A stretch of 28,405 nucleotides of DNA, from positions 1 through 28,405 of the IMG/VR virus record IMGVR_UViG_3300044726_000052, one strand, 5' to 3'. Below the pieces are notes generated by a model. It saw nothing but the letters and a program-made list of their open reading frames with translations. It had not been told where the DNA came from and did not search any database. This document shows, in pieces, positions 11,907 to 28,405 of the stretch (position 1 is its first letter; each line of letters opens with the position of its first letter). The DNA comes from a virus (taxonomy: Duplodnaviria > Caudoviricetes). A program made the position numbers and the translations under genes.

Positions 11907-11978
11907 CAAACTTTCCCACGAGGGGAACGCCGGGGTCGAGATGCACGGCATCCCGGCCGTGGGCCGCGTTTGGCAAGA

Positions 11979-12007
11979 TTGCAATTGGTTGCCAGACTGG
12001 GTACACT
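11979..12007 (+). promoter_or_regulatory. Probable portal operon promoter overlapped by a GCAA-N4-TTGC palindrome
   Basis: TTGCAA(11979-11984)-N17-TACACT(12002-12007), with GCAATTGGTTGC at 11981-11992. Confidence 0.55.
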
Positions 12008-12056
12008 CTGGGCTCCCCCGACTGACCAGTTATTTGTTACGTGGGCAGGAGCCATC

Positions 12057-13922
12057 ATGGCGTTGAAAGTCACTCCGGGCACGCTGAGCAAACTAGAAAA
12101 GCCCCAGCGGTCCACGATCACCTTCATCCAACAGGTGATTAAGGGCGAGACATATTTGGTGATGGCGCAATCGAAGGTGGAGTTGGAGGACGAGTTCTCC
12201 CACCTCTACTTCACGACGACCGCCCCGCAGAACCTGTTCCTCCAGCCGCCCTTTGACCCGAACGTCCTGCTGAACCTCGTCCAGACGAACAACATCCTGA
12301 ACCAGTGCATCGAGGCGATGGAAGTCAACATCGACGGCACCGGTATCGAGTTCGAACCGCTGGAAGAAGGCGGGAAGGTCAGCCCCGAGGAAGAAAAAGC
12401 GGCCAAGCAGTTCTTCAACGAGCCCTACCCCAACATCTCGTTCGTCAGCCTCCGGCGCAAACTCCGCCGCCAGATGGAGTCCATCGGCTATGGCTTCATT
12501 GAAATCCTGCGGAACGTGGCCGACGATGTCGTGTCCATGCGGAACGTGGAGACGCCGCACATTCGCATGTGCAAACTCGACAAGCCCATCCGCGTGAAGA
12601 AGATGATCGAACGCGACGGCAAGGAAGTCGAGTTGGAACTGTGGGTGCGTGAGCGCCGGTTCGCCCAGATGGTGGGCCTGAAGGATCAGGTCTACTTCCG
12701 GGAGTTCGGGGCGACCCGACAATTGCACCGCACGACCGGCGAGTGGGAGGAAGACGGCAAGGCTGTCAAGCCCGAGGACCGGGCGTCGGAACTCCTGATT
12801 CTCGGCATCAACCCGGACATCACCACGCCCTACTTCCTCCCGCGCTGGATCAACAACCTCCCGTCGGTCATCGGCTCCCGCCATGCCGAAGAACAGAACC
12901 TCCAGTTCCTCGACGCCGGGGGACTCCCGCCCGCCATCGTGTTCGTGCAGGGCGGCACCATCATCAAGGACGCCTCTGACCAGTTGCGGATGTACCTGTC
13001 CGGCATGAACAAGAACAAGAACCGGGCGGTGGTCGTGGAAGTGCAGTCGTCCAGCGGTTCGCTGGATGCCTCCGGGAAGGTGGACGTCAAGGTCGAACGC
13101 TTCGGTTCTGCCGCCTCCAATGACTCGATGTTCCAGAAGTACGACGAGGCCACCGAGGAGCACGTTCGGACGGCTTTCCGCCTGCCGCCCCTGTTCCTCG
13201 GGAAAGCCGACGACTACAACTTCGCCACGGCCCGCACGGCCTACATGGTGGCGGAAGCCCAAGTCTTCGGCCCGGAGCGCACCGAGTTCGATGAGGTGAT
13301 GAACAAGACCATCATCAAAGCCATCGGCTGGGAAACGCTCCGCATGCGCTCCAAGCCCATCACCCTGAAGGACGTCGAGGCGCAGTTGCAGGGCTTGACG
13401 CTGGCGAAGGACGTGGCGACCCGCGAGACCTTCCTCAAGGAAGTCAATGCCATCACCGACCTGTCGCTCGACATGGCCGAGGTCCCGGCCCAAGGCGTGG
13501 GCGAGATGCACGAGCCGCTGGAGAACACCCCGACCGCCGACGAGATGGATTCCGGCAAGCTCCCGGCCGCCATGGCAGCGGTCCAACCGGCCATGAAGCC
13601 CGCGCCGGAACCGCCCGGCCCCGACAAGAACGACAAGGAGATGAAAGACCTCAAGGTCAAGGAGCAACGCGAAAAGCTCCGGCTCATCAAGGGCAAGAAG
13701 ACCGCCAACGAACTCATCGACTTGGTCCATGACTACGCGACGATGAAAGGGCTGGTGCAGAAGCGGGAGTTGACGCCCGAGACCCAACTCCTAGTCGAAG
13801 AAGCCGTGGACCATCTGGACAGCGAAGACCGGACGGCGTTCAACCGCCTGTTCGCGTCCTACGTGTTCGGCGGCGACGACCCGGACCTCCAGCAGATTGT
13901 TGAGTTCAACCGAGAGGCGTAG
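12057..13922 (+). CDS. Phage portal protein (PBSX/HK97-like, long form)
   Basis: AGGAG before ATG 12057. Motifs ESIGYGFIEILRN, YFLPRW, FLDAGGLPPAIVFVQGG, AFRLPPLFLG and YNFATA..A...F.PER. Confidence 0.88.
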   Translation: MALKVTPGTLSKLEKPQRSTITFIQQVIKGETYLVMAQSKVELEDEFSHLYFTTTAPQNLFLQPPFDPNVLLNLVQTNNILNQCIEAMEVNIDGTGIEFEPLEEGGKVSPEEEKAAKQFFNEPYPNISFVSLRRKLRRQMESIGYGFIEILRNVADDVVSMRNVETPHIRMCKLDKPIRVKKMIERDGKEVELELWVRERRFAQMVGLKDQVYFREFGATRQLHRTTGEWEEDGKAVKPEDRASELLILGINPDITTPYFLPRWINNLPSVIGSRHAEEQNLQFLDAGGLPPAIVFVQGGTIIKDASDQLRMYLSGMNKNKNRAVVVEVQSSSGSLDASGKVDVKVERFGSAASNDSMFQKYDEATEEHVRTAFRLPPLFLGKADDYNFATARTAYMVAEAQVFGPERTEFDEVMNKTIIKAIGWETLRMRSKPITLKDVEAQLQGLTLAKDVATRETFLKEVNAITDLSLDMAEVPAQGVGEMHEPLENTPTADEMDSGKLPAAMAAVQPAMKPAPEPPGPDKNDKEMKDLKVKEQREKLRLIKGKKTANELIDLVHDYATMKGLVQKRELTPETQLLVEEAVDHLDSEDRTAFNRLFASYVFGGDDPDLQQIVEFNREA

Positions 13923-13924
13923 GC

Positions 13925-15652
13925 ATGCCTCCGACGTTCGATCTTCGCACCTACGCCAAGCTGGAAGCCGCCTTGATCCGCCATCTGGTCAAGGACTGGA
14001 AGCAGCGGTCTGCCCCGATCTTCGCGGACATCGCCACGGCGTGTCGGAACCGGCAGTGGAACGAGGCCCGTCGGCGGGTGCCGGAACTCGACCTGCACGA
14101 GGTCGGCGCGGAGAACAAGGAGTGGATCAAGTACCATCTCCACTCGTTCGCGGTGTTCGGGGCCGGGTGTGTCGCTAAGCAGCGGCCCTCCTTTGTGGGT
14201 GTCGGCACCTTTGATACCACCCTCAATCAAGTCGCCCAGAACGTCGTCACCTATCTGGAACTCACCGCCACGAGTCAGGTGCAGACCCAAACATTGCAAC
14301 TGATTGCCGAAGACGAGGCCATGGCCACGGCCCCGGTGAAGGTGGCGTACGACCCCGCCCAACCCCGTGATGCGAGTGGAAAATGGACGGGCACGGCAAC
14401 ATTCACAGCAACCGAAGATATTCCCGAGTATCCGGGTCGGGAACTCTCGGATCATATTTCTAAGATTCAGGACGCACCTATCGTTCAGATTGAGACGTCA
14501 GAAGATCGTGTAGACGAGGGCACCGTTGCAGTCATGATGCGTGCCATGCAGGCCGGGGAAGGATTGCCTGCGTTAGTCGTGGAATTTTCTGGAGATACGC
14601 CGGACGGCACTGGGGATATGGTCACGGTGATTGATGGCCACAATCGCCTAAAAGCCGCAAAGCGATTGGGAATGTCTATCGTACCCGTGCGGGTGCGAGT
14701 GGCAGACGATGATTGGTCTACTGTGAAAGCGGCCGGGGGCATGGCTATTCGTGTGGCCACGGCCCAGTTGAAGGTGGCGAAAGACACCCGCTGGGATGAG
14801 TCGCAACATCCTCGCAACCCCGCCGGGTCAGACGCCGGAGGCGAGTTCACCACCGTCATCAAGGAGGGCATGCGGGCCTACGCCAAGAAGGATTCCGACC
14901 GCTTGAAGGCCCTCGGCGTCCCGCCCGACTGGACGGATGTTCAAGTCTCCATCAACCCAAACGCCGGGCTCCAAGCCACCGGCAAGGATGCCAAGGGCCG
15001 CACCCAGTACTGGTACAGCGCCGAGCACGACGAGAAAGCCGCCGCCGAGAAGTTCGAACGGGTCAAGGAGTTTGCCAGCGTGGCCGACAAGGTCAGCGCC
15101 CAGACCTTGAAGGATCTGGAGTCCGATGACCCCGAGGTCCGGGAGGCCGCCGCCGCGCTCTACGTCATCGAGAAGACCGCCTTCCGCATTGGGTCCAACG
15201 CCGAGACCAAGGCCGACAAGAAAGCCTACGGCGTCACGACGCTCCTCGGTAAGCATGTGCGGGTGCTGGAGGGCGGCCGGGTCTCGTTCCGGTTCCCCGG
15301 CAAGAGCGGCGTCCTGAACGCCAAGATCATCAAAGACCCGGTGCTCCACAAGATGATGTCGGAGCGCAAGGGCGGGTCGGACGCCCCGCTGTTCGACACT
15401 TCCGGCGACAAGGTCCGGGACTACATGGATCGCACCGCCCCCGGCTTTCACCCCAAGGACTACCGCACGCATCAGGGGACCGCCATCGCCCTGCTGGAAA
15501 TCGACAAGCGCAAGAAAGTCAAGACCGAAAAAGAGTTCAAGCACGCTCAGAAGATGGTAGCGAAGGTCGTGGCGGCCCACCTCGGCAACACGCCCACCGT
15601 CGCCATCGAGAGTTACATCAACCCGGCCGTGTGGGGGCGACTCCGTGCATAA
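13925..15652 (+). CDS. Polyvalent protein: helical N-terminus (putative MuF N-half), ParB/Srx domain and type IB DNA topoisomerase
   Basis: ParB: LPALVV...VIDGHNRLKAAKRLG. TopIB: VPPDWTDV..LQATGKDAKGRTQY, RIG, GKSG, KDYRT and LGNTPTVAIESYINP (Tyr codon at 15614). Peptide tags at 14348 and 14792. Confidence 0.85.
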   Translation: MPPTFDLRTYAKLEAALIRHLVKDWKQRSAPIFADIATACRNRQWNEARRRVPELDLHEVGAENKEWIKYHLHSFAVFGAGCVAKQRPSFVGVGTFDTTLNQVAQNVVTYLELTATSQVQTQTLQLIAEDEAMATAPVKVAYDPAQPRDASGKWTGTATFTATEDIPEYPGRELSDHISKIQDAPIVQIETSEDRVDEGTVAVMMRAMQAGEGLPALVVEFSGDTPDGTGDMVTVIDGHNRLKAAKRLGMSIVPVRVRVADDDWSTVKAAGGMAIRVATAQLKVAKDTRWDESQHPRNPAGSDAGGEFTTVIKEGMRAYAKKDSDRLKALGVPPDWTDVQVSINPNAGLQATGKDAKGRTQYWYSAEHDEKAAAEKFERVKEFASVADKVSAQTLKDLESDDPEVREAAAALYVIEKTAFRIGSNAETKADKKAYGVTTLLGKHVRVLEGGRVSFRFPGKSGVLNAKIIKDPVLHKMMSERKGGSDAPLFDTSGDKVRDYMDRTAPGFHPKDYRTHQGTAIALLEIDKRKKVKTEKEFKHAQKMVAKVVAAHLGNTPTVAIESYINPAVWGRLRA

Positions 15653-17558
15653 CGACGACGTCATCGCCTACCCGCCCGACGTGTTGGACCGCGTGATGCG
15701 CGAGTTCATCGAGACGACCCAGTACGTCGGCACGGTGCAGCCATGGCGCGTCACGCCGGAGACGTACGACGACCCGGACGATGATGTGGCGGTCAAGTGG
15801 GACCCGGCGCAGCATCCTCGTGATGAGCAGGGTCGGTTCGCGGCGTACCACGGGTCCAATGTTTCGGACATCCAAGAGTTCAAAGCGGCCTATGGAGCCA
15901 TTCCCGGTTGGTTCTCTGGGCATCAGGACTTGGCGAGCGGGTATGCCGATCTCAAGACGCGCTTCTTGGGGGGCACGGCGACGGTCTACCCGGTGAAACT
16001 TTCCATTCAGAATCCCATCGAGATTGCCGGGGATATGAATGCGAAGACGACCTATCGGGAAGAACGAGAACGAACCGGGTTGGAGTTCACGGTCGGGAAG
16101 TATGGCGATGAAATCGTGGAGGGGGTCGAGCAGAAATACACCCGCTATGAAATTGTCACGTCCCCCGAGTTCGTCGCTGCCGCTAAAGCCAAGGGCTATG
16201 ACGGCATCAAGGTCAACGAGGGCGGGCATCCGACGTGGGGCGTGTTCGATTCCCAGCAAGTGGTCCACGCGGGGAAAGCGACCGTCCTGACAGAGGCTAC
16301 GCGCCGGAAGGCGCGAGATCAGGCCCGAGACGACGCCAAGAAGTGGCGGGCGGTGACGGCGAAATGGGACGAAACTCTCAAGAAATTCGACCCCAACCAG
16401 CCCCGCGATAAGAGTGGGAAATGGACGGACGGCCGGACGTTCACCAGTGAGGAAGGTTACGACTGGCACGAGAAGGGGCCGGGTATCGGCTGGGCCAAGA
16501 GCCTCCGCTATGCGGACATCAAGCAGTTGAGCAACTACTCCGGCTTCGGGTACCACGACGTGAACGACTTACGCCGAGGCACCTACAAGCAGCCGGTCAA
16601 GAACTACTTCGTCCGAGCCGCCACGCCCGAAGAAATGGCACGGGTCGGCTGGGATGTGGCCAACAACAAGTGGGTGCCGAGCATCAAAGTCAAGGAAGGG
16701 GAGTACAAGCCGGGGCATCCCATCGATCCTCGTGATCAGATGACGCCCGAACGTGAGGCTCAGTTTGGGCACCCCATGGGGAAAAGCAACCCCAGCGATT
16801 TCAATCCGGCTGATCCGTACCATCAGGTAGCCGACGGACGCATTGTCGTCAACCAATACTATCGCCCGGTCGAGGGCGGTCCGCCGATGATGTTCAGTAT
16901 CCAGCGGGCGGCCCCGGATGCGGAACGGCTGGCGCAAGTGCAAGGCGAAGCGGATGCGCTGGATGACCTGATTGCTCATCGCGGGCTGGTGTTGCCCGAG
17001 GACACGACGGTGCTGCGAGGGGCCTATCTGCCCGGCGTGACGGTGGAAGACCTGCAGGACATGGAACTCTACGGCAAGGTCTACGAGGAGAAGGGCTTCA
17101 CGTCCACGTTCCTCGGGGATGCCGAGGGCCGCGCCAGATCCTACCCCGCCCTTGGCAAGTGGGAAAGCATCCACCAGCGTTATAAGTCCAAAGGGAATCC
17201 GCTGATCGAGCATCAAGATGAAGTGGGGACGGCGATCCAGTTTCACATCACGCTCCCGGCCGGGACCAAGGTGGCGTCGGTTGAAGCGGCACGACGGATG
17301 AGTCATACGTTTCCCCCCAAACCGGATGGCAGTGGGCGGGATTACGCGGCCGAACCGACGATGGGCACCGAAGACCTGCAGAACAAGAAGACGCGCAGCG
17401 AGAGTGAAATTCTCCTCGGCAGTGGCGCACGGTTCAAGGTCACACGGGTGGAATTCGGCTACACGTACGAGACGGGGGACCCGCTGCTCAAGCCGGTGAA
17501 GGTCTACGAGGTCCATCTGGAATACATCGGCGGCGGGAGCAGCGAGGGCACGCGATGA
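15645..17558 (+). CDS. Polyvalent protein with two ADP-ribosyltransferase-like domains (ART-PolyVal-like and VIP2/Alt-like R-S-E)
   Basis: Domain 1: AYHGS..WFS..ASGYA..VYPVKL..NP..KGYDGI..VFDSQQV. Domain 2: YSGFGYHDVNDLRRG..VLRG..KGFTST..ITLPAGT..ESEILL..GARFKV. Tags at 15798 and 16386. Confidence 0.8.
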   Translation: MHNDDVIAYPPDVLDRVMREFIETTQYVGTVQPWRVTPETYDDPDDDVAVKWDPAQHPRDEQGRFAAYHGSNVSDIQEFKAAYGAIPGWFSGHQDLASGYADLKTRFLGGTATVYPVKLSIQNPIEIAGDMNAKTTYREERERTGLEFTVGKYGDEIVEGVEQKYTRYEIVTSPEFVAAAKAKGYDGIKVNEGGHPTWGVFDSQQVVHAGKATVLTEATRRKARDQARDDAKKWRAVTAKWDETLKKFDPNQPRDKSGKWTDGRTFTSEEGYDWHEKGPGIGWAKSLRYADIKQLSNYSGFGYHDVNDLRRGTYKQPVKNYFVRAATPEEMARVGWDVANNKWVPSIKVKEGEYKPGHPIDPRDQMTPEREAQFGHPMGKSNPSDFNPADPYHQVADGRIVVNQYYRPVEGGPPMMFSIQRAAPDAERLAQVQGEADALDDLIAHRGLVLPEDTTVLRGAYLPGVTVEDLQDMELYGKVYEEKGFTSTFLGDAEGRARSYPALGKWESIHQRYKSKGNPLIEHQDEVGTAIQFHITLPAGTKVASVEAARRMSHTFPPKPDGSGRDYAAEPTMGTEDLQNKKTRSESEILLGSGARFKVTRVEFGYTYETGDPLLKPVKVYEVHLEYIGGGSSEGTR

Positions 17559-18754
17559 AGACCGAGACGCGGCTCCCCGAAGGCGGCGACCGATTCGTGT
17601 GGGGGGCGGAGTTCGTGCCCGCCCAGAAGTGGGACGAGTCTCAGCACCCTCGTGACAAAGAAGGCCAGTTCACCGACGCCGGGACCACGCGCCAGCCGGG
17701 CGAAGACGTGGACGACATGGAAGGCGCGGGTCCCGAGCGCAAGAAGTGGTCGGACCTGAACGTCAAGGCCATGGAAGCCACGGAGGCGTTCTTTACGGCA
17801 AAGGACGCGCATCGTCCCCTGTTTACGCGGGTCGATGAGGCCATGTCTGCCTTAGTGGCGAAAAATCCTGACGCGACGGTCGGAGAGCTTGACGAGGCGG
17901 GCCGACTCGCCGTCCCGGAGTGGGAAGCATCGAAGGCCCGGCTCCAAGCTGCTCAGAAGGCGATGCTCGCGGCTGAAGAAGCGGTGCGGGAGCAGACGCC
18001 CCGCATGAAGACGGAGATTGTGACGAACCTCGCGGTGGCCGAAGCGAAGAAGATGGGGGTTCACCCGTGGTACCTCAACGTCGTGGACAAGGAGCCCCGC
18101 GAGTTCAAAGTGGGGGACAAGCAGTTCACCGAAGGGGGGCACTTTCAGCCGTGGGACGAGATGATTGAAATAAACGTGCGGAATCTCGACTATGGTGACG
18201 CGCCCGTCGTGCGGGGGATGGTGTCCCACGAACTCTCGCATTTCGTCTACCACCGGGTGAAGGCCATTGCCGATGCGGAATTCGAGAAATACAAGGCCAA
18301 GGCCATCGATCCGCACGATTCCGATCAATACACCCCGTGGCACACGGAACACTTTGAGCGGGACCCCGACCGGTTTGGGGCCTACCGTGCGAAGGCGTCG
18401 TCTCAGGCGATGCTGGCGGCGGAGTTTCCCGCCTCGATGGCGTTGTCGATCATGTCGGGCGGCCCTCAGTACCTGTTCAAGGGCATCTCCCGCGAGATGG
18501 TCAATGAGAACGGTCACAGTGCCTATGCGAAGTCCTACTGGTCGAAGGACGCGATTGCGGCGAAGCATAGTTACGAATCGGCCATCAATGAGACCATCGC
18601 GGAGGTGACGCGCTATCTGCATCACCCCCGGTCGTGGCATGAAGACCACCCGGTGAATCTGGACTCGCCGTGGGTGAAGCTGACCAGCGCCATGCACAGC
18701 TACTACCGGCAGCGGCAGGCCCGCATTGACGCGGCGAAGTTGGCCAACCGATGA
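17555..18754 (+). CDS. Tagged zincin-like metallopeptidase protein
   Basis: HELSH (HExxH) at 18227, then SAYAKSY and NETIAE. Tag at 17630 and ATGA overlap. Confidence 0.75.
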   Translation: MKTETRLPEGGDRFVWGAEFVPAQKWDESQHPRDKEGQFTDAGTTRQPGEDVDDMEGAGPERKKWSDLNVKAMEATEAFFTAKDAHRPLFTRVDEAMSALVAKNPDATVGELDEAGRLAVPEWEASKARLQAAQKAMLAAEEAVREQTPRMKTEIVTNLAVAEAKKMGVHPWYLNVVDKEPREFKVGDKQFTEGGHFQPWDEMIEINVRNLDYGDAPVVRGMVSHELSHFVYHRVKAIADAEFEKYKAKAIDPHDSDQYTPWHTEHFERDPDRFGAYRAKASSQAMLAAEFPASMALSIMSGGPQYLFKGISREMVNENGHSAYAKSYWSKDAIAAKHSYESAINETIAEVTRYLHHPRSWHEDHPVNLDSPWVKLTSAMHSYYRQRQARIDAAKLANR

Positions 18755-19752
18755 TCCCGCAGCCCTTCACCCTCGACGGCCGGTCCGGCACCATCGTCTA
18801 CATGGACGCCCACTGGCAGCCCGTCCCGCCCGAGCAGGCGACGATGGCCAAGGCGGTCTTTGATGACGGTGCGGTGGCGTTCTACTTCGCGGAGAGTGAC
18901 GCCAAGAAACGGGAGTACGTCCGTGAACCGGCGGGCAGCCCCGAAGGGGGACGGTTTGCGGAGACCGCTGATGGCCTGCCCCTGAATGCCAACGGGCAAG
19001 TGGCCGAGGCCAACGGCCAGTGGAATCGGTCCGCCTCCGGTGAGAAGCCCTACCATTGGCAGAGTCGCCACGACGACCCGACCTACGTCGTCCCGAAGGT
19101 GTATCACACCGTCGTCCGGGACGGTGGCACATGGGGGTATTCGCATGGCAACAGCCAAGCGATTACCGGATCGTCCGCGTCCAAGATGAACATCCCCGGT
19201 TACCGGGATACGGCCGATGAAAACGACAATTCGCGGGCCATGGAGATTGCCGACCGGTTCTTGACGAACATCGCGGCCGACGACATGGGGTCCGAAGAAG
19301 TGCTGCATCATGCGTTCGAAAATACGCGGCACACGGTGTTCAAGGTCGGGGATACGCTCCGCCTGCCGCTGATGGCGGCGTCGGGGGATATTGGGGGGTC
19401 GTACGCCATCCGATCCTACGCGGAGACCCAGCGGGGCGAGCCCGTGGTCTTTGAGTTCGAACCCGGCACTCAGATGTCCGCCTATAGCACGGTGACTTTA
19501 CGGGACGCCAAAGACCTCGACCACCCGACGGTCGAAGCCGCCATCAAAGAACGCGGCTATCTCTGGGACGAAGCCATTGTGGCGGGGGGCTTTGAAGTGG
19601 TCAGCGTCACCACGAAATACATGGGGTCGCAGCATTCCGATAAGCCTGAGTTGTCGGGAGCGGACGTGACCTCGCAGATTTACGGCAAGGTCGTGCGCTT
19701 GCGGCAACGCGAGACGTTCTCTCCGTCGAAGGGCTGGGTGCCGCGTGGCTGA
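18751..19752 (+). CDS. Small N-terminal domain, tag and divergent ART-fold-like domain
   Basis: ATGA overlap and variant tag at 18916. VLHHAF..VGDTLRLPLMAAS..YA..VVFEF..DEAIVAGGFEVVSV follows ART element order, but the catalytic motifs are degenerate. Confidence 0.6.
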   Translation: MIPQPFTLDGRSGTIVYMDAHWQPVPPEQATMAKAVFDDGAVAFYFAESDAKKREYVREPAGSPEGGRFAETADGLPLNANGQVAEANGQWNRSASGEKPYHWQSRHDDPTYVVPKVYHTVVRDGGTWGYSHGNSQAITGSSASKMNIPGYRDTADENDNSRAMEIADRFLTNIAADDMGSEEVLHHAFENTRHTVFKVGDTLRLPLMAASGDIGGSYAIRSYAETQRGEPVVFEFEPGTQMSAYSTVTLRDAKDLDHPTVEAAIKERGYLWDEAIVAGGFEVVSVTTKYMGSQHSDKPELSGADVTSQIYGKVVRLRQRETFSPSKGWVPRG

Positions 19753-22700
19753 TCTGACGTTAGCAGTCGCTCAGTCGCATCAAGAGGCTCCCCATCAGAC
19801 GGGACACTCTCGAAAAGCCCCGCCCCCGCCGGGACTAGGCGGCCTCACTCGGAAGTTTGATGCCGTGCTCCATCCTCGTGGCGAGGACGGCCGGTTCGTG
19901 GAGGCCAGCCAGCCGCGCATCTTCAATCGGCCCGAGGAAGTGGGTTCTTATGAGAGTTGGGGCGGAGGGAAACGCTGGGGGTGGAAAGACCCCCAAACAG
20001 GAGAGACGACCGGCCGCCTCCTGACCGGTGAGCCCATCGCCCCGGAGAACGTCCCCAAGACCCTGTACCACGTCACCACGGCGGCCACGGCGGTGGAGTC
20101 CTCCGGCGTCCTGCTGGGGCTCCTAGAGGACGGTGGGCTGGGGGGCGGGCAAGCGCCGGGGGTGTCCTTCACGGCGGACCCTCAAGACGCCGTGGTCATC
20201 CAGCGAGAACTCCGTCGGGCGGTGCAGATTGCCCGAGGCGACCTGACCATTGAGGATTTGGCCCAGTTCGCCCGCGAGGACGAACGGGAAGCCGGGTTGT
20301 CCGAGGGGGCGTTGAAACCAGCGTTGGACTATGGTCGAGGTCAGTGGGACGGCAACGAGTTCATTTTGCGAGGGCAATATGTACCGGGGAAAGGGCATGA
20401 CCCTGATACGCCCCACACCCCTCAAGAACTGGAACGGGTGCGTCGAAGCCTGTTGAAGGATGCGTTCAGCGCCTACTTGCAAACCCGTGAAGAAGCGGCG
20501 GCTAAAGCGTTGGGCCAGAAAGAATGGCCGTATTCGGTGCCCATGCTCAAGAACCCCCTCATCCTCGGACGGCAAGAGCATCTCGCCAAGCTCACACCCG
20601 AGGACATCCAGACGTTGACGGTCGAGTCTGCCCAGATTCCCGCAGGCGCACTGGTCACCACCGGCTCCGATAAGTTCCTGCACGAAGTGCGGGTCTATGC
20701 CGACGTGCCCCGGCCCAAGCGGTTGCACTCAATTGCCAAGAAAGATTTTGACGAATCCTTGCACCCGCGAGAACCCGCCGGGTCAGGCGATATTAGCGGA
20801 CAGTTCACGGGATCAGGCCACACCGGAGCCGCGATGCCGGACCCGGTGCTGGCGGGCCACGCCAAAGCCGGTATCGCTAAGGTCGAGACGCTCCTGCCGC
20901 AAGCCATCGAAGACGCTGACTACACCGGCACGGCGAAATCATGGAGTGCCGTTGACAGTGGCGTGCAGAACGAAGTGCGGCAAGAGTGGGAAAACGAACA
21001 ATACGAGGACGGCGTCGATGTCGATACCTCGTATCTGGACGAGGAGACCAAAAAGGAAGTCCAGAAAGACAATCAGGCGCTTCTCGATCAGGCGGTCGAG
21101 GTCACGGTTCGCAACCTACAGAATGTCAAACCCTTCAAAGATACCGACCCGACGCTGCCGATGCGGCCCCCCGAGGAGTGGTTGGAAGAAGCCTTCACGC
21201 CGAAGGAATTCGAACTCCATCGTACGCTGGACCCGGACACCATCGACTACGGCGAAGGCGAGCACGAAGACGGACCGCATCAGGTCGCGTTGGACTTGGA
21301 CGCGCTGCGATTCACGTCGGGCGAGCCGCTGACCCCGGATGAACAGAAGATGGTCCGGGACCAGTGGGACGCGGCTTACAAAGATGCGTATGAGACGGCG
21401 CTGGAAAAGGCGTTTGAGTCCAACAGCTACTCTGAGCAGCGGAACGAACTAGAGCAGCAACAGGTGTCGGACGCATGGGACAATTTGTCTGACGAGGAAA
21501 AACTCGATTACATGCGGTCAAAAGGTAAGTCTGTGGGGCTGGACACGGGGGAACCCGACACATGGGTGACCGGCGTCGAGACGGGGGCGAAGGAGAACGA
21601 GGATTACGCTCGCACCCATGCCATCGCCCTGAAGCTCACGGAACTCCGCACCGACGAACTGCGGAAAGAGCGTGGGCTGCTCGATGCGGGGCCAGTTCCC
21701 ACCTACGAGATTCGCACGCGGCAGCTTGAGTCTCGGTCTGGATTCGTGGGCGACGACCCCAATAAGGTCGTGACGTCCACGTACTACACGGCGGTGACTG
21801 AGACCGGGCGGGTGATTGCCGAGGGCTACACGGAGCAGAGCGTCAAGAACCAAGCTGATTCGTGGGCGTCTCGCCAATCGACGGAGTCTTCTCGGGTCGG
21901 GACGCCGGAGATGATCGAAGACCTCTGGCGGCAGTGGAAGCTCTCATCGAGCGAAGGCATAGCCCTCTCCATGCAATTGGCCGCCGCGCAGGAATTTGGT
22001 GGGCTACACCGGTTGACGCCGGACGAACTCAAGACGGCTCTCGACGCGGCCGATGAAGTCGGCGGCATGGAGAACATCAAAGCCTACGTCCGCGCCCAAT
22101 GGGAAGTCACCCAGATGGTCATGGCCAAGGCCGGGGAAACCAAGGTCGAGGTCTACCGTGGGCTGATGTTGGAAGGGGATCGGATTGATCGCACGCCGAA
22201 CGTGAAGGTGGATAGCTCTACCGGAGAGTCTGTCAAACGCTCCTTGCCCACCAACATTTCAGTGCAACAACGCGAGGGTGTCTTTACGGTGACGTTCGAA
22301 TACGCTGGCCAGATTTTGCATGTGGAGAAGAAACCCAAGGCCCCCAAGGTTCCGTACAGCAGCATCGTGGATCTTCCCAAAGAGGGCACCCCTACGGAGT
22401 GGGAAGATGACGCGACGGCGGTCCAGCGGCGGATTGAGTACTACCATCGCACGAGTGGCAAAGAGTTGATCAAGCTCCCAGAGTTGATGTTGCGCCGAGC
22501 GGGTGCTCAGTCCACGACGGGCACGGCGTCGGTCGCCAACAATTGGAACGGCGTGGGAGAACTGCCTCCAAACCCGGTCCGCGTAGTCCTCCGCATCGAG
22601 GCTCCGGCGACGTCGGTCCTGTCCCTCCCGGTGTATGGACAGAACGACCAGTCGGAGCACGAGTCGGTCCTCATCGGCACCAAGGACCGCTGGCTCTGGG

Positions 22701-24361
22701 ATGCGTGGCGGAAACAGGCCCCGCTAATCAAGACCATTCCCATCAGCACGACGGTCCGCAAGGCGGAAACAGGGCCGTTGGTCATCGACCTGCAGGACGA
22801 AGACCGGGGCAAGCCGCACTGGATGTCCAGTGTGAACTGGTCCACGGTGCAAGCAGTTGCCAAGACCTACCTTGACGTATTAAAATGGGAGGAAAGTGAG
22901 CACCCCCGTGAACCCCAAGGCTCCGCCATCGGCGGACAATTTACCTCGGCAGCCTCGCAACCTGACGCCGGAGCAGGAGGAGGCCGAGGAAGCGCCGTAT
23001 CGCCGTCGGCCGCCGTCAAAGGACGCCCCGACGCCGTCCCCGCCGCCCAAGCCATAGCCGACTCGTACAACGCCCGACAGGGCCTGCCGCCCGTCCAGCA
23101 CGGCTACGTGGCCGTGGACGAGCCCCGAGCAGGCACCATCGCGGACGCCTACGACGCCCTCCCCGAGCATGACGAGGACAACCCCGCCGTGCAGGCGGCC
23201 TACGAGGCGCTGGCGACGGAGATCCAAGCCCAGTGGGACCACATCATCGCCAGCGGCGTGGAGATGGTCCCGTGGACCAAGGAGGGCCAGCCGTATGCCA
23301 CCTCCAAAGAGATGGCGGACGATGTCCGCGTCAACAAGCGGCTCTACTTCTTCACGGGGGGCACTCCGAACCGGTTCATGGCGAAGGCCGATGCCAACGG
23401 CCTGACCATCAACGACAAGTTCCGAGCCGTGCATGACTTCTTCGGCCATGCCGCCGGGGGCTACGGGTTTGGCGCTCGCGGCGAGGAGAACGCATGGGTG
23501 TCGCATTCCCAGATGCTCTCCCCGCAAGCACGTCGAGCCCTGACCACGGAGACCCGAGGGCAGAACTCGTGGGTCAACTTCGGGCGGCAGAACTACCACC
23601 CGGACGGGACCTACAAGAACATCCCGCCGGGCGACCGGCCGTTTGCCACCCAGAAGGCGGCCCTACTCCCGGACATCTACGCGCTGCTGCCGGGGGAACG
23701 GGCGCTCAAGTGGGACGAGTCCCAGCATCCGCGAGATGAGGTGGGGCAGTTCACCCGCGTGGCGATGACCAGCCAGCGGCCCGAGGACGACCCGGAGCAC
23801 AAAGAGAACAAAGAGGTGTTCAAGCACATGCGGGCCTTTGAACAGGGGCTGAAGGCCCTGCCGGGCGTCTCCCGTGTCTCCGTCAAGCCCGGCGTCGGCG
23901 GCTGGAACGGGGGATCGGAGTCCATGTGGCAGATTTACTACCGAGGGAACGGCGAAGCCCGGAAGCTCGTGGCCCGGACGGCGAAGCAGTACAACCAAGA
24001 TTCGGTGCTGGTCCTGAACAAATGTGAAAAAGGGGCAGACTGCCAGCCCGCAGTTGAGTTATTCTTTAAGGGGGGCATTTCGCCCCAGACGCGGGAGCAT
24101 ATTCACGCGACGTTGCTCGCGCACGGGATTACCGGCTGGACGTGGATGAAGCGGGACGGCAAGTCGCTGCTCCGCATGGTCAACGTGCCACCGTGGTCTA
24201 CGTGGGGCGCGGACGGCGTGAAGCACCAGCAGGCCACGGCGACCATCAGCCGGGAACTGCACGAGTACGGCATCGACAATTTTCGGAAGGTCCACAAGGT
24301 GGGCGTCTCGATTATGGAACGCGAAGGAGCGCACAGCTATGACGCCATCATCGGCAGATAA
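19745..24361 (+). CDS. 1538-aa polyvalent protein: His-type ART-like domain, acidic domain plus R-S-E ART-like domain, HDxxGH domain and SAM-lyase-like domain
   Basis: Four tags (19856, 20747, 22886, 23711) each precede a module. Motifs in order: LYHVT..GVSFT..HEVRVY; VYRG..QSTT..EHESVLIG; FRAVHDFFGH..GEENAW..ETRGQNSW; GGW..SE..AKQYNQDSVL. Confidence 0.8.
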   Translation: MADLTLAVAQSHQEAPHQTGHSRKAPPPPGLGGLTRKFDAVLHPRGEDGRFVEASQPRIFNRPEEVGSYESWGGGKRWGWKDPQTGETTGRLLTGEPIAPENVPKTLYHVTTAATAVESSGVLLGLLEDGGLGGGQAPGVSFTADPQDAVVIQRELRRAVQIARGDLTIEDLAQFAREDEREAGLSEGALKPALDYGRGQWDGNEFILRGQYVPGKGHDPDTPHTPQELERVRRSLLKDAFSAYLQTREEAAAKALGQKEWPYSVPMLKNPLILGRQEHLAKLTPEDIQTLTVESAQIPAGALVTTGSDKFLHEVRVYADVPRPKRLHSIAKKDFDESLHPREPAGSGDISGQFTGSGHTGAAMPDPVLAGHAKAGIAKVETLLPQAIEDADYTGTAKSWSAVDSGVQNEVRQEWENEQYEDGVDVDTSYLDEETKKEVQKDNQALLDQAVEVTVRNLQNVKPFKDTDPTLPMRPPEEWLEEAFTPKEFELHRTLDPDTIDYGEGEHEDGPHQVALDLDALRFTSGEPLTPDEQKMVRDQWDAAYKDAYETALEKAFESNSYSEQRNELEQQQVSDAWDNLSDEEKLDYMRSKGKSVGLDTGEPDTWVTGVETGAKENEDYARTHAIALKLTELRTDELRKERGLLDAGPVPTYEIRTRQLESRSGFVGDDPNKVVTSTYYTAVTETGRVIAEGYTEQSVKNQADSWASRQSTESSRVGTPEMIEDLWRQWKLSSSEGIALSMQLAAAQEFGGLHRLTPDELKTALDAADEVGGMENIKAYVRAQWEVTQMVMAKAGETKVEVYRGLMLEGDRIDRTPNVKVDSSTGESVKRSLPTNISVQQREGVFTVTFEYAGQILHVEKKPKAPKVPYSSIVDLPKEGTPTEWEDDATAVQRRIEYYHRTSGKELIKLPELMLRRAGAQSTTGTASVANNWNGVGELPPNPVRVVLRIEAPATSVLSLPVYGQNDQSEHESVLIGTKDRWLWDAWRKQAPLIKTIPISTTVRKAETGPLVIDLQDEDRGKPHWMSSVNWSTVQAVAKTYLDVLKWEESEHPREPQGSAIGGQFTSAASQPDAGAGGGRGSAVSPSAAVKGRPDAVPAAQAIADSYNARQGLPPVQHGYVAVDEPRAGTIADAYDALPEHDEDNPAVQAAYEALATEIQAQWDHIIASGVEMVPWTKEGQPYATSKEMADDVRVNKRLYFFTGGTPNRFMAKADANGLTINDKFRAVHDFFGHAAGGYGFGARGEENAWVSHSQMLSPQARRALTTETRGQNSWVNFGRQNYHPDGTYKNIPPGDRPFATQKAALLPDIYALLPGERALKWDESQHPRDEVGQFTRVAMTSQRPEDDPEHKENKEVFKHMRAFEQGLKALPGVSRVSVKPGVGGWNGGSESMWQIYYRGNGEARKLVARTAKQYNQDSVLVLNKCEKGADCQPAVELFFKGGISPQTREHIHATLLAHGITGWTWMKRDGKSLLRMVNVPPWSTWGADGVKHQQATATISRELHEYGIDNFRKVHKVGVSIMEREGAHSYDAIIGR

Positions 24362-24530
24362 CGACGAGCAACGACGACAAGCCTTTCGGGACCATCTGGC
24401 GCAGGAACGAGCGTCAGGGGAGCCCATTGATACGTCGTGGACGGATGACTTGCCGTCCGACCGGCTCCCCGAATACGAGGATGAGACGTCGGTGACGTTC
24501 ATCCAGAAGACTCCGCCCCCGGAGTCGTAG
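24339..24530 (+). CDS. Small acidic hypothetical protein (63 aa), candidate partner of the upstream domain
   Basis: AAGGAG precedes ATG 24339. Overlaps the end of the upstream gene and fills the gap to 24537. Confidence 0.55.
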   Translation: MTPSSADNDEQRRQAFRDHLAQERASGEPIDTSWTDDLPSDRLPEYEDETSVTFIQKTPPPES

Positions 24531-24536
24531 GGCCCC

Positions 24537-26441
24537 ATGTTCAACCCTGCTGCCATTCAGGCGCTGATTCGGAGCACGACCACGCGCTATCGACGCATCC
24601 TGAAGTGGGATGAAGACAAACACCCACGGGTGCCGAGCGGCAGCGGGCGGGAGAGCGGACGCTTTACGTCGGCGGGCACTGTGCAGGAGTCGCTGGCGGT
24701 GCCGACGCCAACTCCCCCGCCCGTGTTTCCCAAAGCCCAAGCGCCTGTGGAAGTGCTCCGTGCTCGTGGCGGCCCGCAGACCCGGCAGGCCATTGCGGCC
24801 GAGGTGGCCGACGTCAATGTCGAGCGGGTGGCGTACGCGAAGGCGCTGCAACAGGGGGGCCGGGCGTACTCCAAGGCTCCGGGGATGAGTCGGGACCCCG
24901 GCATGGGGCTGGCCGACTACGCCGACCTGATGAACGCGCCGACCGGCACGGGCTTCGGGAACACCCCGCGCATCACCGGAGACCGCGAGGCGGTGCAGCG
25001 GCTGACGACGCCCGTGAAACCGCCGTCACGGACGCTGGAGGTCCTGAAGACGGCGCACATTATCGATGCGGAGGAACTCGATCCGGGCGAACACGCCAAC
25101 GACGTGTTCAAGGTCACGCTGGCCACGCTCGATAATGACGAGGAGGAAACGACAGCCATCCTCAAACCCGAAGTCGGGGAGGCGTGGACCGGCTCGTTCT
25201 CCAACGACGCCATCGTCGCCAACATCACGAACCGACAATTCTCACTGGCGGAACGCGAAGCCACGGCCTATGAATTCGCGGAGGCCATGGGGATGAATGA
25301 CGACGCGGATTTTGTGCCGAAGACCGTGGCCCGCACGGAGATTGATAACCTGCCCGAGGCCAGCGGGAGCGACGGCGGCGGGGGCATGGACTCCTACGCG
25401 ATTCAGGAGGAATACGATGCCTATCGAGAGAAGGCCCTAGAGAAGGCCATGGACGCCGTGGGGCAGGAGTTTGGCGACCTCTACTATGCCGCCCAGACCG
25501 AGCACTTGGAGGACATCAATCGCCGGGCCGACGAGGCCGCCGAGATTTGGAACGACTTAGTCGAGAAGGAGTTTGCCGACGCGGCCGAGACCACCGATGA
25601 GGATTTTCGGGCCCAGCGAGACCATCCCGTGCTGCCGATGGGGAGTCAAGAACCCTTTGAGCGCCGGGTGCCGGTCACGCTCGACCCGCTGGAACTCATG
25701 GACGAGGCCAAGATTGATGTCGAGCACACGATGTCGCCCGCCGAGCGCGAGAATCTCCGGGCCGTGATGCGGCAGCATCTGCAGGACGGCGCGTACGAAC
25801 TGGGTGACGTGGACGAAGACGCGGCCCGCGAGCATCTGGATCGGGATCAGTGGATGGAAGACCATCAGGATACTGAAAACCGGTTGTATGACAGCAAGAT
25901 CCAATCGCTGGAGGCGTGGAAGCAGAGTCAAGGCTACGGCACCCGCGAGCCCGGCAGCGCCAAGAACACTCGTGCCCCGCACCCGAATGGGGGCATGCTG
26001 CAGGACTTCGTGGAGGGGCTAACGCCCTCCGGGGCCATGTCCTCACAGGAGCGGCGGAAGATCGCCATCTTCGATTATGCGGTGGGCAGCTTGGACCGCC
26101 ACGGCAACAACGTGTTCTACGACGGCGACGGGAACTTGCTGGCCATGGACAATGGTTACGCCTTCCCGGATTCCAATGACACCACCTTCCGGTCGGACCC
26201 GACGAGGCGGTGGTTGTCGTGGGGCAGTGACGCGGAGATGCCCGAGGATGAGCGGAAGCCCTTGCTGCTGGCCATGCAGAACACCGACTGGCAGGCGTTC
26301 GCGGACCGGCATCCGAACATGAGTCCCGGAGAGCGCGAGGCGTTCTTGGAGCGCATCGGCCATCTGCGGACGGCGCTGGAGACCTCGACGGGGTTGTATC
26401 GCCTGTGGACGAAGATGTCCCAGAAGCTGATGAGAACTTGA
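24537..26441 (+). CDS. Tagged PI3/4-kinase/HipA-like kinase with a large acidic insertion
   Basis: ILKP, REATAY, VPKT, GMLQDFV, FDYAVGSLDRHGNN (Asp at 26094) and AMDNGYAFP. Tag at 24606. Confidence 0.85.
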   Translation: MFNPAAIQALIRSTTTRYRRILKWDEDKHPRVPSGSGRESGRFTSAGTVQESLAVPTPTPPPVFPKAQAPVEVLRARGGPQTRQAIAAEVADVNVERVAYAKALQQGGRAYSKAPGMSRDPGMGLADYADLMNAPTGTGFGNTPRITGDREAVQRLTTPVKPPSRTLEVLKTAHIIDAEELDPGEHANDVFKVTLATLDNDEEETTAILKPEVGEAWTGSFSNDAIVANITNRQFSLAEREATAYEFAEAMGMNDDADFVPKTVARTEIDNLPEASGSDGGGGMDSYAIQEEYDAYREKALEKAMDAVGQEFGDLYYAAQTEHLEDINRRADEAAEIWNDLVEKEFADAAETTDEDFRAQRDHPVLPMGSQEPFERRVPVTLDPLELMDEAKIDVEHTMSPAERENLRAVMRQHLQDGAYELGDVDEDAAREHLDRDQWMEDHQDTENRLYDSKIQSLEAWKQSQGYGTREPGSAKNTRAPHPNGGMLQDFVEGLTPSGAMSSQERRKIAIFDYAVGSLDRHGNNVFYDGDGNLLAMDNGYAFPDSNDTTFRSDPTRRWLSWGSDAEMPEDERKPLLLAMQNTDWQAFADRHPNMSPGEREAFLERIGHLRTALETSTGLYRLWTKMSQKLMRT

Positions 26442-26467
26442 CAAATATCTAGCCTTTCTGGTAGACT
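26438..26467 (+). promoter_or_regulatory. Sigma70-like promoter with extended -10
   Basis: TTGACA(26438-26443)-N18-TAGACT(26462-26467). The -35 contains the kinase stop codon. Confidence 0.65.
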
Positions 26468-26487
26468 AGCGAGATGAGGGGTGTCAG

Positions 26488-26739
26488 ATGCACGCGAAAT
26501 TGATGAATTACGCCGGGAACACCCCGCAGGTCATGGCCGTCCTCCGGGTCGTGGATGGCACCCTCCAGATCGAGGGAGACCTGCAACCGGAACGCCGGGA
26601 ACATCTGGAGAGCGAGTACGCGCTGTTCAAAGCGCGAATCGATCCGACGGGAAATGCCCAGAAGTTCCTGCAGGAGCGGCTCCCGTTCGTGTTCGCGGGG
26701 ATGAAGCTGATCAAGCCGAAGTTTGTCGCTGAGGGGTAA
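26488..26739 (+). CDS. Small hypothetical protein (83 aa)
   Basis: GAGGGG precedes ATG 26488, directly downstream of the promoter. Confidence 0.65.
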   Translation: MHAKLMNYAGNTPQVMAVLRVVDGTLQIEGDLQPERREHLESEYALFKARIDPTGNAQKFLQERLPFVFAGMKLIKPKFVAEG

Positions 26740-26757
26740 CCCGTGCAACCAATTGCC

Positions 26758-28405
26758 ATGGCCGACGTGCTGCGACGGCGGCCGGTCGAGAAGCGCGACT
26801 ACGACTACGGCAGCACCCAGATCGAGATTGACCCCGGCTCCACGGCGGCGGCCCGGCTGAGTGCCGCCCGGCTGCAGATTGACGAGGCCCATGTCGGCGG
26901 TCACGGTAAGGACGTCGATGGCAACCACGTCACGGTCCGCTATGGCCTGCTGAACGAGTCACTGGACGACCTCCGGGCCTACCTCCGAGGGCTGGCCCCG
27001 TTCGACGCACAGGTCACCGGCATCGAACTGTTCAACGTCTCTGAACACAGCGAAGGCATGGTGCCGGTGGTGGCTCGCATCGCCAGCCCGAGGCTCCGCG
27101 AAATCGAATCACAGATTGGGCTTCACGCCGACTTCAAGGCCAAGTCCTTCCCGACCTACAAGCCCCACGCCACGCTGGCCTACGTGAAGCCCCGGTATGC
27201 CGACCGCTACGCGGATCTGCCGGTGGGCGGGAGTTTCTGGGTGCAGGCCGTCACCATTAGTCATCCCGACGGCGGCAAGGAGATTGTGCCGTTCGAAGGG
27301 CTGGTCCAGAAGGCCGACGAAGAAGGCCGGTTCGTGACCCCGTTCGTGGACTTCAGCACGTTGGGAGACGCCCAACTGCAGATGATTGCCAGCCTCAACG
27401 CCAGCCGCTTGGCGACGTGGGGGTTCACGGCCGAGGCCGAGATGCGCGGCGTGACGCGCTACCGGCTGACGGCGGTCCTCGATGGACGCACGAGCAAGTT
27501 CTGCCAGTTGATTGATGGCAAAGTCTTTGAGGTGGAGGAAGGCCGGGAGAAAGTGCTGGAAGCCCTCCAAGTGCAGGACCCGAACGACCTGAAGACGGTG
27601 CAGCCATGGCCGAAGCAAGACCGGGACTCCATGGATGAGTTTGCGGAGATGTCTGACGAGGAATTCGTGGAACGCGGTCTGCACATCCCGCCCTACCACC
27701 CGCATTGCCGGACGGTCTGCGTGTTGGTCGGCGGGGCTCCGAAGAAGACGTTCTCGCCTCGACCGGAGGCCGGGCTGTCTGATCAGCAAGTGACGCCCGA
27801 GACGTTCGCGGAGATGGGCATCGAGGCGACCCAAGAAGACATCGACCATTGGAACGCCCACGTCGGGCTGTCCCCGGCGGAACTCATCGCCAAGCTGGGC
27901 GGAGCGACGGTCCATGACGTGCTGGCCGGGAAGGTCAAGTCATCGGTCCAATTCCCCGACAACGGCGATATCTCCGTCCGCGCCAAGGGCATCAACGTTG
28001 ATGTCAAGTATGCCGTCGGCACGACCCTCGACCCCTACACCGGCACCTACTACCTGACCGACGCCGAGGTGATTGGCGACGTCGGCGCGGCGACCCGGTA
28101 TCTCAAACAGTTGATGGGCTCGATGGTGGAAACGGGCGTCAGTGCCCAGTGGTCGAAGCTGGTCGTGGCGCTCAAAGGGCTGCCCACGCCGTACGTGCAA
28201 TTGGGATTCCTCCCGGACACCTTCCACTGGGAGACCCTTCGCGCCGAGGCGTTGTCCGCGTTGAAGACCTCACCGGATCTGAAGAAGATGATGGCGAGCT
28301 TCAAGACCGAGGATGCGCTGCTGGTCGAACATCTGCTGCTGGCCGACGACCCGGTGAACCTGCAGGTCCTGACCGACCTGAAGCTGACCTACCAGCGCAA
28401 GTCCG
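26758..28405 (+). CDS. Acb1/gp57B-like 2H phosphoesterase fused to a MuF/SPP1 gp7-like head morphogenesis domain; 3'-truncated and absent from the ORF track
   Basis: Manual translation gives no stop to the window end (alternative GTG start at 26743). 2H motifs HVTVRYG (26926) and YKPHATLAYVK (His at 27166). MuF core RYRLTAVLDGRTSKFCQLIDGK (DGRT at 27481) and PPYHPHCR (27688). Confidence 0.85.
   Translation, partial: MADVLRRRPVEKRDYDYGSTQIEIDPGSTAAARLSAARLQIDEAHVGGHGKDVDGNHVTVRYGLLNESLDDLRAYLRGLAPFDAQVTGIELFNVSEHSEGMVPVVARIASPRLREIESQIGLHADFKAKSFPTYKPHATLAYVKPRYADRYADLPVGGSFWVQAVTISHPDGGKEIVPFEGLVQKADEEGRFVTPFVDFSTLGDAQLQMIASLNASRLATWGFTAEAEMRGVTRYRLTAVLDGRTSKFCQLIDGKVFEVEEGREKVLEALQVQDPNDLKTVQPWPKQDRDSMDEFAEMSDEEFVERGLHIPPYHPHCRTVCVLVGGAPKKTFSPRPEAGLSDQQVTPETFAEMGIEATQEDIDHWNAHVGLSPAELIAKLGGATVHDVLAGKVKSSVQFPDNGDISVRAKGINVDVKYAVGTTLDPYTGTYYLTDAEVIGDVGAATRYLKQLMGSMVETGVSAQWSKLVVALKGLPTPYVQLGFLPDTFHWETLRAEALSALKTSPDLKKMMASFKTEDALLVEHLLLADDPVNLQVLTDLKLTYQRKS

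Follow-up and report, generated by a model that had tools for sequence, protein, structure and literature searches.

How does a phage come to encode one head protein in two genes 13 kb apart, with an array of enzyme modules between them? The choice of non-structural proteins for phage heads is understood for a few systems only, and the head protein MuF still has a poorly defined role. The locus described here lies on a virus contig of 28,405 bases (IMG/VR record IMGVR_UViG_3300044726_000052; about 62% G+C), which is taken whole and called the window below; all features of the locus lie on its plus strand. Behind the portal gene, the N-terminal half of MuF and the MuF core are separated by 12,981 bases that carry eleven modules marked by a short recurrent peptide, the tag. 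We propose that MuF has been split at a hinge lysine that the head protease would cut anyway, and that the hinge collects lysine-tag-enzyme cassettes, whose products would be cleaved from one another in the prohead and be delivered along with the DNA. This is the reading that we favour, with confidence somewhat above even. As a variant of MuF and polyvalent effector systems, the locus itself is real, recurrent and well supported.

MuF is one protein in relatives and two genes in the window

A sequence-only reading of the window had proposed that the gene after the portal opens with a helical region lacking the MuF core, that this core appears 13 kb later behind a 2H domain, and that the two parts descend from a single MuF gene. 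All three proposals hold. The portal protein is encoded at 11970-13922 (start probably the ATG at 12057; PHROG 12 portal, E 4e-25; 50 related loci). The following open reading frame (ORF), 13925-15652, starts 3 bases past the portal stop and encodes 575 residues, the first 140 or so of which are helical and matched no Pfam family when searched alone; the N-terminal helical half of MuF (13925-14332) aligns at 38% to residues 4-127 of the intact MuF of the relative L030 (E 8e-23). The MuF core (27313-27740, the PF04233 / TIGR01641 region) lies in the 3'-open ORF 26743-28404, carries the motifs LDGRTSKFC at 27478 and PPYHPHCR at 27688, and aligns at 49% to L030 residues 141-275. It matches PF04233 (E 2e-5) and TIGR01641 (E 5e-8) just under both curated cut-offs, and the intact orthologue L030 exceeds both. 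A clade-specific C-terminal domain (27741-28404), conserved in intact and split relatives, follows the core and runs off the contig end. The description of the core as catalytic-like finds no support; we know of no activity for MuF.

Is the split peculiar to this contig? The region downstream of the portal, compared across 50 portal-related loci, takes intact, in-frame-insert and split forms: L030 and L033 encode the N-half, the core and the C-terminal domain in one frame of 542 residues, and L025, L031 and L034 carry in-frame inserts between the MuF halves. The search of phage proteins that had been suggested for the joined halves was run with each half and with the naturally intact orthologue in place of a concatenation, and intact proteins were found. 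Searching for longer proteins that contain the N-half yielded 29 matches, five of which have both halves, and a search with intact L030 gave 1,719 representatives. The best 150 of these comprise 88 intact proteins, 49 with an in-frame insert at the hinge and 13 with the core only (some of the last may be fragments); MuF is thus a single polypeptide in 137 of the 150 and two ORFs in the window. With 11 relatives split as in the window, by inserts of 3.0-15.0 kb, the hinge is the expandable insertion site that had been foreseen. A locus search with the MuF core alone returned no matches, and the cores were recovered through portal loci and genomes. The N-half and the core are present in one copy each in all five of the relatives' complete genomes (112-120 kb). 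In a quick tree of 74 cores, the 11 included split rows fall with low support among the in-frame-insert forms, which is consistent with an evolutionary order from intact to insert to split, although 39 of its 71 inner branches are open, which counts against leaning on that order. An AlphaFold model of the intact N-half and core is one confident unit (pLDDT 95.2, pTM 0.91), with the hinge as a loop at residues 135-149; it matches full-length minor capsid proteins in BFVD, and no solved MuF structure was found in PDB by sequence or by Foldseek with the model. We also note a short MuF-core-like ORF with the motif PPLHPRCRC behind a tagged array in a glutamate-type phage (L200:3391-3864), possibly another split MuF.

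Decay and misassembly were considered as origins of the split and rejected. Non-synonymous sites are conserved in either half (in the N-half, for instance, pN is 0.06 and pS 0.45 in comparison with L001), which argues against a pseudogene. Over 13500-28405, zero insertions or deletions are listed in contigs from four runs, one of which may be the source, and the same module-end patterns occur in relatives; a joint from 16970 to 27049, found in a single contig with just 23 letters on its side, was set aside. Could a continuous MuF be restored by splicing, protein trans-splicing or recoding, the cargo being an intervening element? The first five large ORFs do overlap by 4-8 bases, as such a mechanism might have it. 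However, from relative to relative the ORFs stop and restart at the same module ends, 49 relatives just read through the insert in frame, and the junction residues are the lysine motif and the tag; Pfam scans of the ORFs matched no intein family, and a gene fractured by an intein was rejected on that ground. We consider restoration of this kind very improbable.

A predicted head-protease site at the hinge

The split falls within the hinge that joins the two halves in intact MuF. Its left remnant (14333-14347) holds lysine 139 in the context PVK↓VA, where the arrow marks a protease site predicted from sequence. Its right remnant, LVQK↓AD with the lysine at 27310-27312, closes the segment 26743-27312, in which a 17-residue leader ending in VEK is followed by an untagged 2H phosphoesterase (PF13563, E 6e-6, just under the curated cut-off). 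The hinge is the most length-variable window of MuF, ranging from 13 to 41 residues, yet 85 of 89 intact rows retain its lysine, for the most part in the form V-Q/K-K↓A-E/D; the pattern [VAILT]xK is present in 86 of 88 hinges and in 271 of 820 control windows.

Lysine is the residue after which HK97-type proteases cut; for T4 gp21 it is glutamate. The V-x-K↓A/D motif is common to the MuF hinge, capsid residue 9 and the scaffold of relatives. In the relative G005, for example, VIQK↓AD stands at capsid residue 9, the scaffold has five V/T-x-K↓AD sites, and the capsid and scaffold genes adjoin an XkdF protease gene (E 3e-22), downstream. Because the capsid and scaffold of relatives carry the hinge motif too, the split can be placed at a predicted cut of the XkdF protease, and it is likely, to a degree well above even, that a head protease of the XkdF type cuts after the hinge lysine. 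The DNA polymerase has seven chance matches to the loose motif in 801 residues, so that position and conservation carry this argument rather than the motif alone. It tells against the proposal that protease and capsid are read from relatives with 48-69% identical portals and not from the window, whose contig terminates within the MuF core gene; its own protease and capsid genes lie beyond the end.

Effector modules between the MuF halves

The six large coupled ORFs of the sequence-only reading are all present, with starts at 13925, 15645, 17555, 18751, 19745 and 24537. The first of them is the MuF N-half gene itself, and two small ORFs (24339-24530 and 26488-26739) had been overlooked, as had the conserved hinge lysine site and the small partner genes described below. 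The eleven tagged modules likewise stand. Tag 1 and a ParB-like module of the in-frame type (14348-14791; PHROG, E 2e-8) are followed by tag 2 and a topoisomerase IB (TopIB) module (14792-15652; PF01028, E 1e-26), which ends the first ORF. Tag 3 leads an ADP-ribosyltransferase (ART) module of the ART-PolyVal family (15798-16385; PF18760, E 6e-12), and tag 4 leads a VIP2-like ART with R-S-E motifs (16386-17558; PF03496, E 4e-5, and motifs), which ends its ORF. The module behind tag 5, also ORF-terminal, is a zincin with an HExxH motif (17630-18754; HELSH at 18227; NCBIfam SprT, E 3e-5). Tag 6, a YVRE variant, precedes a module with degenerate ART-like motifs (18916-19752), the weakest call, made on motifs only. 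Four modules share the next ORF: tag 7 with an ART-like module of the H-x-E type (19856-20746; LYHVTT, VSFT and HEVR invariant in eight relatives; an Atlas lead to PARP/Arr below 0.9), tag 8 with a large module bearing R-S-E ART-like motifs (20747-22885; VYRGL, QSTT and SEHESV), tag 9 with an HDxxGH module (22886-23710; PHROG 3170, a family of unknown function, E 7e-23), and tag 10 with an S-adenosylmethionine (SAM)-lyase-like module that ends the ORF (23711-24361; PF23780, E 3e-4, weak). Finally, a 23-residue leader and tag 11 (at 24606) precede a PI3/4-kinase-like (HipA-like) kinase (24537-26441; PF00454, E 2e-5).

Profiles thus bear out the proposed ParB, TopIB, two ART, zincin and kinase identities and, weakly, the SAM lyase, and the HDxxGH module belongs with PHROG 3170. 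Three of the five ART-like identities rest on motifs: the modules at 18916, 19856 and 20747 matched neither Pfam nor NCBIfam, and that at 18916 shows no similarity to the window's other ART, leaving its ART label doubtful. The large ART-like module ends in a conserved piece behind a lysine site of its own (22770-22885; K↓AE..LVIDLQ.EDRGKPHWM), invariant in seven relatives and possibly another small partner or tag.

Cutting 14 genomes or loci at their tags gave 200 pieces in 39 families, the largest an over-merged mixture, which are reshuffled between proteins; the window's zincin family was found in 11 of 17 loci examined. In the window, at least two conflict domains per chain occur in head-gene context in the ORFs starting at 13925, 15645, 19745 and 26743. 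That the cargo is of the polyvalent-effector type, as had been proposed, agrees with the relative G008 (L058:2735-4981), in which GNAT, TopIB and a clear Acb1 anti-CBASS domain (E 7e-39) lie in frame inside the MuF hinge. This Acb1 domain and the domain stock of polyvalent proteins (PMC5512222, PMC9503650) support an anti-defence role for the cargo. A tagged gene downstream of MuF in G003 contains a FAD-dependent oxidoreductase module (L053:1924-3567, minus strand).

Small partners of the chain-ending modules

Each of the window's ORF-ending modules has its own piece downstream and retains it across loci, irrespective of what comes next: the zincin in 11 of 11 cases, the kinase in 11 of 11 hits, the SAM-lyase-like module in six of seven, TopIB in three of three and the ART in two of two. 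The TopIB partner is a 51-residue leader fused to the next module (15645-15797), found after ORF-terminal TopIB in all three clade members and, as the leader of the next gene, in the unrelated phage L200 (E 3e-9); G008, whose TopIB is internal, lacks the piece. Similarly, a 25-residue leader (17555-17629) is linked to the upstream ART in the window and in L001, whose downstream modules differ, and a 55-residue leader (18751-18915) is the partner of the upstream zincin. Of 33 loci with this zincin partner, many of them redundant, 32 have a zincin directly upstream and one begins at the contig edge; the partner is a free-standing gene of 56 residues in L200, a glutamate-type phage, and is fused to a different tag in L193-195. 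A further leader of 37 residues, ending in GLTRK, occupies 19745-19855. Two partners are small ORFs of their own, one of 63 residues behind the SAM-lyase-like module (24339-24530) and one of 83 residues behind the kinase (26488-26739). All 41 hits of the kinase-partner profile lie directly behind a kinase, and among five distinct kinases lacking a profile hit the downstream ORF beats 200 shuffles in three (G005, L070 and L080). The zincin, TopIB and kinase partner families thus recur in unrelated phages (L200, L193-195, L070 and L080).

The kinase partner is predicted to fold as a small alpha/beta domain with a weak lead to HipS and the HipA N-terminus. Its likeness to 4pu3_A (Z 3.7, root-mean-square deviation (rmsd) 3.8, 69 residues aligned) and 7vkb_B (Z 3.4, rmsd 3.6, 67 aligned) is low, RWD domains score higher (Z 4.8), and none reaches Z 5, which weakens the lead. 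7VKB is the HipT-HipS complex (PMC9325769), and its chain B appears from its length to be HipS. A HipS-like identity is therefore a weak lead and not a membership.

The pairs fit effector-immunity cassettes as in MuF toxins (PMC5576092), and by this analogy the partners likely act as antidotes to their modules, a proposal to which we give slightly better than an even chance. Two observations temper it: hitch-hiking between tags alone would yield leader linkage inside the clade, and the ORFs downstream of the unrelated kinases L046 and L128 do not score against the partner profile. Stop-bearing effector-partner cassettes also explain the split of MuF: a chain-ending cassette brings its own stop, and its partner, fused onward to the next lysine-tag, leaves the host gene split with the downstream part still translated.

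The zincin invites another reading, that it and not the XkdF protease processes the polyproteins, as autoproteolysis by MPTase domains has been proposed for polyvalent proteins by Iyer et al. 2017 (PMC5512222). The presence of its family in 11 of the 17 loci favours this, but the lysine motif is kept in 86 of 88 intact MuF proteins, which have no hinge cargo, and in split relatives without this zincin in the fetched region (G005, L021 and L024); moreover, the zincin has a partner of its own like the other chain-ending effectors. We give this reading hardly any weight.

The tag as a candidate loading address

What do the modules have in common? Ten of the window's tags fit the pattern W/F/Y-D-x2-3-H/Q-P-R..G-x-F/W, the eleventh is the variant YVREPAGSPEGGRF at 18916, and all 11 are preceded by lysine. 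A control search of the minus strand, over 940,368 bases of related loci, gives two matches to the pattern. Among 130 distinct tag contexts from the loci and proteins compared, which are mutually related so that the counts are not independent, lysine stands at position −1 in 100 and within −4 to −1 in 129; the corresponding controls are 28 and 99 of 456. The tag has no NCBIfam family, and its Atlas matches are below 0.9 or are short structural matches.

The tag is conserved as a peptide while its codons vary (55% nucleotide identity), and a DNA repeat or att-site was rejected for that reason. The same property bears on the idea that the array is a late-expressed arsenal of the infected cell or lysogen, serving host take-over, superinfection exclusion or toxin-antitoxin addiction and mostly unpackaged, with tags as mere recombination borders. 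The partner genes do match toxin-antitoxin logic, the modules are shuffled with tags as borders, and SPP1 gp7 is present in 1-2 copies per capsid (PMC5576092). Yet the tags are kept as peptides, the tagged genes of the loci inspected lie mostly among head genes, three modules are covalently joined to MuF halves, and the residue before the tag follows the type of head protease, as set out next. We regard an unpackaged arsenal as distinctly improbable.

A DNA-pattern scan of viral contigs gave 118 stretches with the tag, many of them in unrelated phages, where tags occur within portal, MuF, protease and free-standing proteins. Once 29 loci of the window's own clade and 11 duplicates were removed and the window added, the census comprised 67 tagged loci, 31 of them with at least two tags. 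The class of the residue before the tag is shared within a phage at 0.82, against 0.60 in shuffles, none of 5,000 being as high. Lysine or arginine precedes 19 of 20 tags in eight HK97-protease loci and 21 of 29 tags in five XkdF loci, and aspartate precedes four of five tags in three DUF2213 loci. XkdF was not found in any of five genomes with tags of the non-lysine type, but these are 22-77% complete, and the result was not counted. A tblastn search of single tags against cultured phages, for which such short queries are insensitive, found only gp48 of Streptomyces phage Gilgamesh and a Helicobacter prophage portal, with none for a third tag.

Does MuF or the tag bring the cargo to the head? 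Four cargo genes of the window contain no MuF sequence, and the tag is the sole feature common to all four. Tagged genes also stand outside MuF in relatives, between portal and MuF (L001, G003 and G005) or after MuF (G003 and G004), a placement that weakens the view of MuF as the cargo's carrier and makes the hinge one insertion site among others. On these two grounds we read the tag, and not MuF, as the likely loading address. Judged from such sequence comparisons, tag-directed loading is somewhat better supported than an even guess, and MuF, earlier taken to be the carrier, is unlikely to be the sole one; it would be the landing site more than the vehicle. Several further points weigh against this reading. 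Common descent of flanks within a phage inflates the permutation result; L070 has an XkdF protease yet D-type tags, with lysine nearby in one of seven; L077, the sole T4-type locus, has no glutamate before its tag; and of the five XkdF assignments made in other loci, three are weak (E 0.002-0.04).

An alternative is that the split and the cut sites are real and the tag is no address, being instead a cap for protease binding or folding, or a peptide that binds DNA. Stand-alone cargo would then depend on its leader to reach the head, as with the capsid targeting sequence of T4, or would get there only as a fusion with MuF, portal or protease. In its favour, the tag would stay on the protein after the predicted cut, whereas T4's targeting sequence is removed; a helical leader common to the kinase genes precedes their lysine; the 2H module, though untagged, has a lysine site; and some tags lie within fusions with portal, protease and scaffold, which need no address. 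On the other hand, the lysine motif occurs in capsid, scaffold and intact MuF, which have no tag, so that the predicted cut does not depend on one, and the leaders are mutually unrelated and mostly follow the upstream module, whereas the tag is common to all four MuF-free cargo genes. We think this alternative unlikely, though it deserves more weight than the others discussed here.

A broader proposal is more tentative, and we place it somewhat short of an even chance: the tag, of about 15 residues, may be a lineage-independent capsid-loading address that each phage pairs with its own head-protease site, so that effector-antidote cassettes could be plugged in as virion cargo by unrelated phages. 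A MuF hinge cut by the protease would then serve as a neutral landing pad, and the antidotes would ride as leaders of the next module, to be cut off during head maturation.

Some individual tagged or tag-like proteins are recorded here. Gilgamesh gp48 (L176:8914-18066; about 4,600 residues), from a cultured phage, lies behind a portal-MuF fusion and starts RRK↓WNPALHPRDSKGRF. The XkdF-protease phage L070 encodes a protein of 1351 residues (L070:7401-11453) with six tags, mostly after D-A-E, possibly a recent import from a D-type lineage. Other candidate tags are L↓LGGxGSGNFGHAGRPG and GHEFHGNQWT in L194 and K↓GAPIGNTNAAK at L035:3474. A conserved small gene after MuF in split relatives carries ..K↓GEGHIHS/T.KWHRC (L051:15102, L052 (oriented 14188), L055:13370, L057:12969 and L059:16983).

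A model for the split MuF locus

The favoured reading, in which MuF is split at a protease-cut hinge, can be laid out in six steps. The ancestral protein comprises the N-half, a variable hinge with V-x-K↓A, and the core, as in the intact relatives. An XkdF-type prohead protease would cut after the lysine, and the halves would be held together by folding, which would make the covalent link dispensable. Third, cassettes insert at the hinge and are reshuffled with tags as borders: read-through cassettes lengthen the protein, and chain-ending ones bring a stop and a small partner gene and so split the gene, the end of the partner often running in frame into the next lysine-tag. Fourth, the partners may serve as antidotes that protect the producing cell, as in MuF toxin-immunity pairs. 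Fifth, the retained tag, W/F-D-x3-H/Q-P-R..G-x-F/W, may be an address for loading or ejection, by which genes without a MuF part could reach the head. Lastly, once released, the enzymes would counter host defences and rival elements at an early stage of infection.

The eleven modules are likely to be loaded into the virus particle. The case for packaging combines gene context with two analogies: in SPP1 the portal directs gp7 to the procapsid (PMC6316719), and the intact MuF of Delepquintavirus DLP3, gp2, gave eight peptides in particle mass spectrometry (PMC7326821). The DLP3 authors caution that their preparation held non-structural proteins (PMC7326821), which lessens the force of the second analogy.

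Neighbouring genes and relatives

The rest of the window encodes a pyruvate phosphate dikinase (PPDK), two phosphatases, DNA polymerase A and the portal. The PPDK-like gene lies at 38-1723, and the SIO-2-like vibriophage J26 reportedly has one as well. The two dual-specificity phosphatase genes lie at 2349-2924 and 4500-5249, and DLP3 likewise carries two such genes (PMC7326821). A protein of 404 residues (5312-6526) contains a stretch like the C-terminal part of ribosomal L7/L12 (E 2e-5). By MuF core, the closest cultured phages are the Stenotrophomonas phages DLP3 and DLP5 (51%; DLP3 gp2 is 51% identical to the window's core) and SIO-2-like vibriophages. The metagenomes containing the contig come from soil, groundwater and sediment, and no RNA dataset is among the listed data sets that contain it.

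Comparison with known systems

The literature searched, with supplements and most subscription papers outside the search, yielded no description of a split MuF, of the tag, of XkdF specificity or of a packaging motif. By gene position, and by a core that matches PF04233 and TIGR01641, the window's MuF resembles SPP1 gp7, Mu gpF and DLP3 gp2; it differs from all three in being encoded as two genes 13 kb apart. The cargo most resembles the polyvalent proteins of Iyer et al. 2017 (PMC5512222), with their stock of ART, zincin, 2H, kinase, ParB and GNAT domains, their head-module context and fusion to MuF or portal, and their proposed packaging and proteolytic release. The word 'split' is absent from the main text of that paper, whose supplement could list such architectures. 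In contrast to polyvalent proteins as described there, the window's cargo lies inside MuF at a conserved hinge, is spread over several genes, shares one recurrent tag after lysine and comes in effector-partner pairs.

The MuF polymorphic toxins of Jamet et al. 2017 (PMC5576092) likewise have MuF behind the portal and an ORF-ending effector followed by a small ORF, which is found after 89.4% of 191 MuF toxin genes. Those systems carry one C-terminal toxin on an intact MuF, whereas the window has five chain-ending effectors between the halves, the partner often being fused as the leader of the next module. HipT-HipS (PMC9325769) also sets a HipA-like kinase beside a small alpha/beta protein, and the fold likeness is weak; the window's partner is downstream of its kinase, no HipB is seen, and Z is only 3.4-3.7. 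The locus traces a path by which a single C-terminal MuF toxin becomes a reshuffled arsenal of several genes, and it points to many small unannotated ORFs of the head region and to N-terminal leaders as candidate immunity proteins. It also predicts where the MuF and capsid proteins of the cultured phages DLP3 and SIO-2 would be cut, and it offers a short candidate loading peptide and five effector-partner pairs.

Finally, the internal proteins of T4 bear a capsid targeting sequence and are processed by gp21; the signal stands before the cut and is removed. In both T4 and the window, a short peptide and a prohead-protease site are proposed to load non-structural proteins into the head. The window's tag, in contrast to the T4 signal, stands after the predicted cut, would be retained, and is common to unrelated phage lineages.

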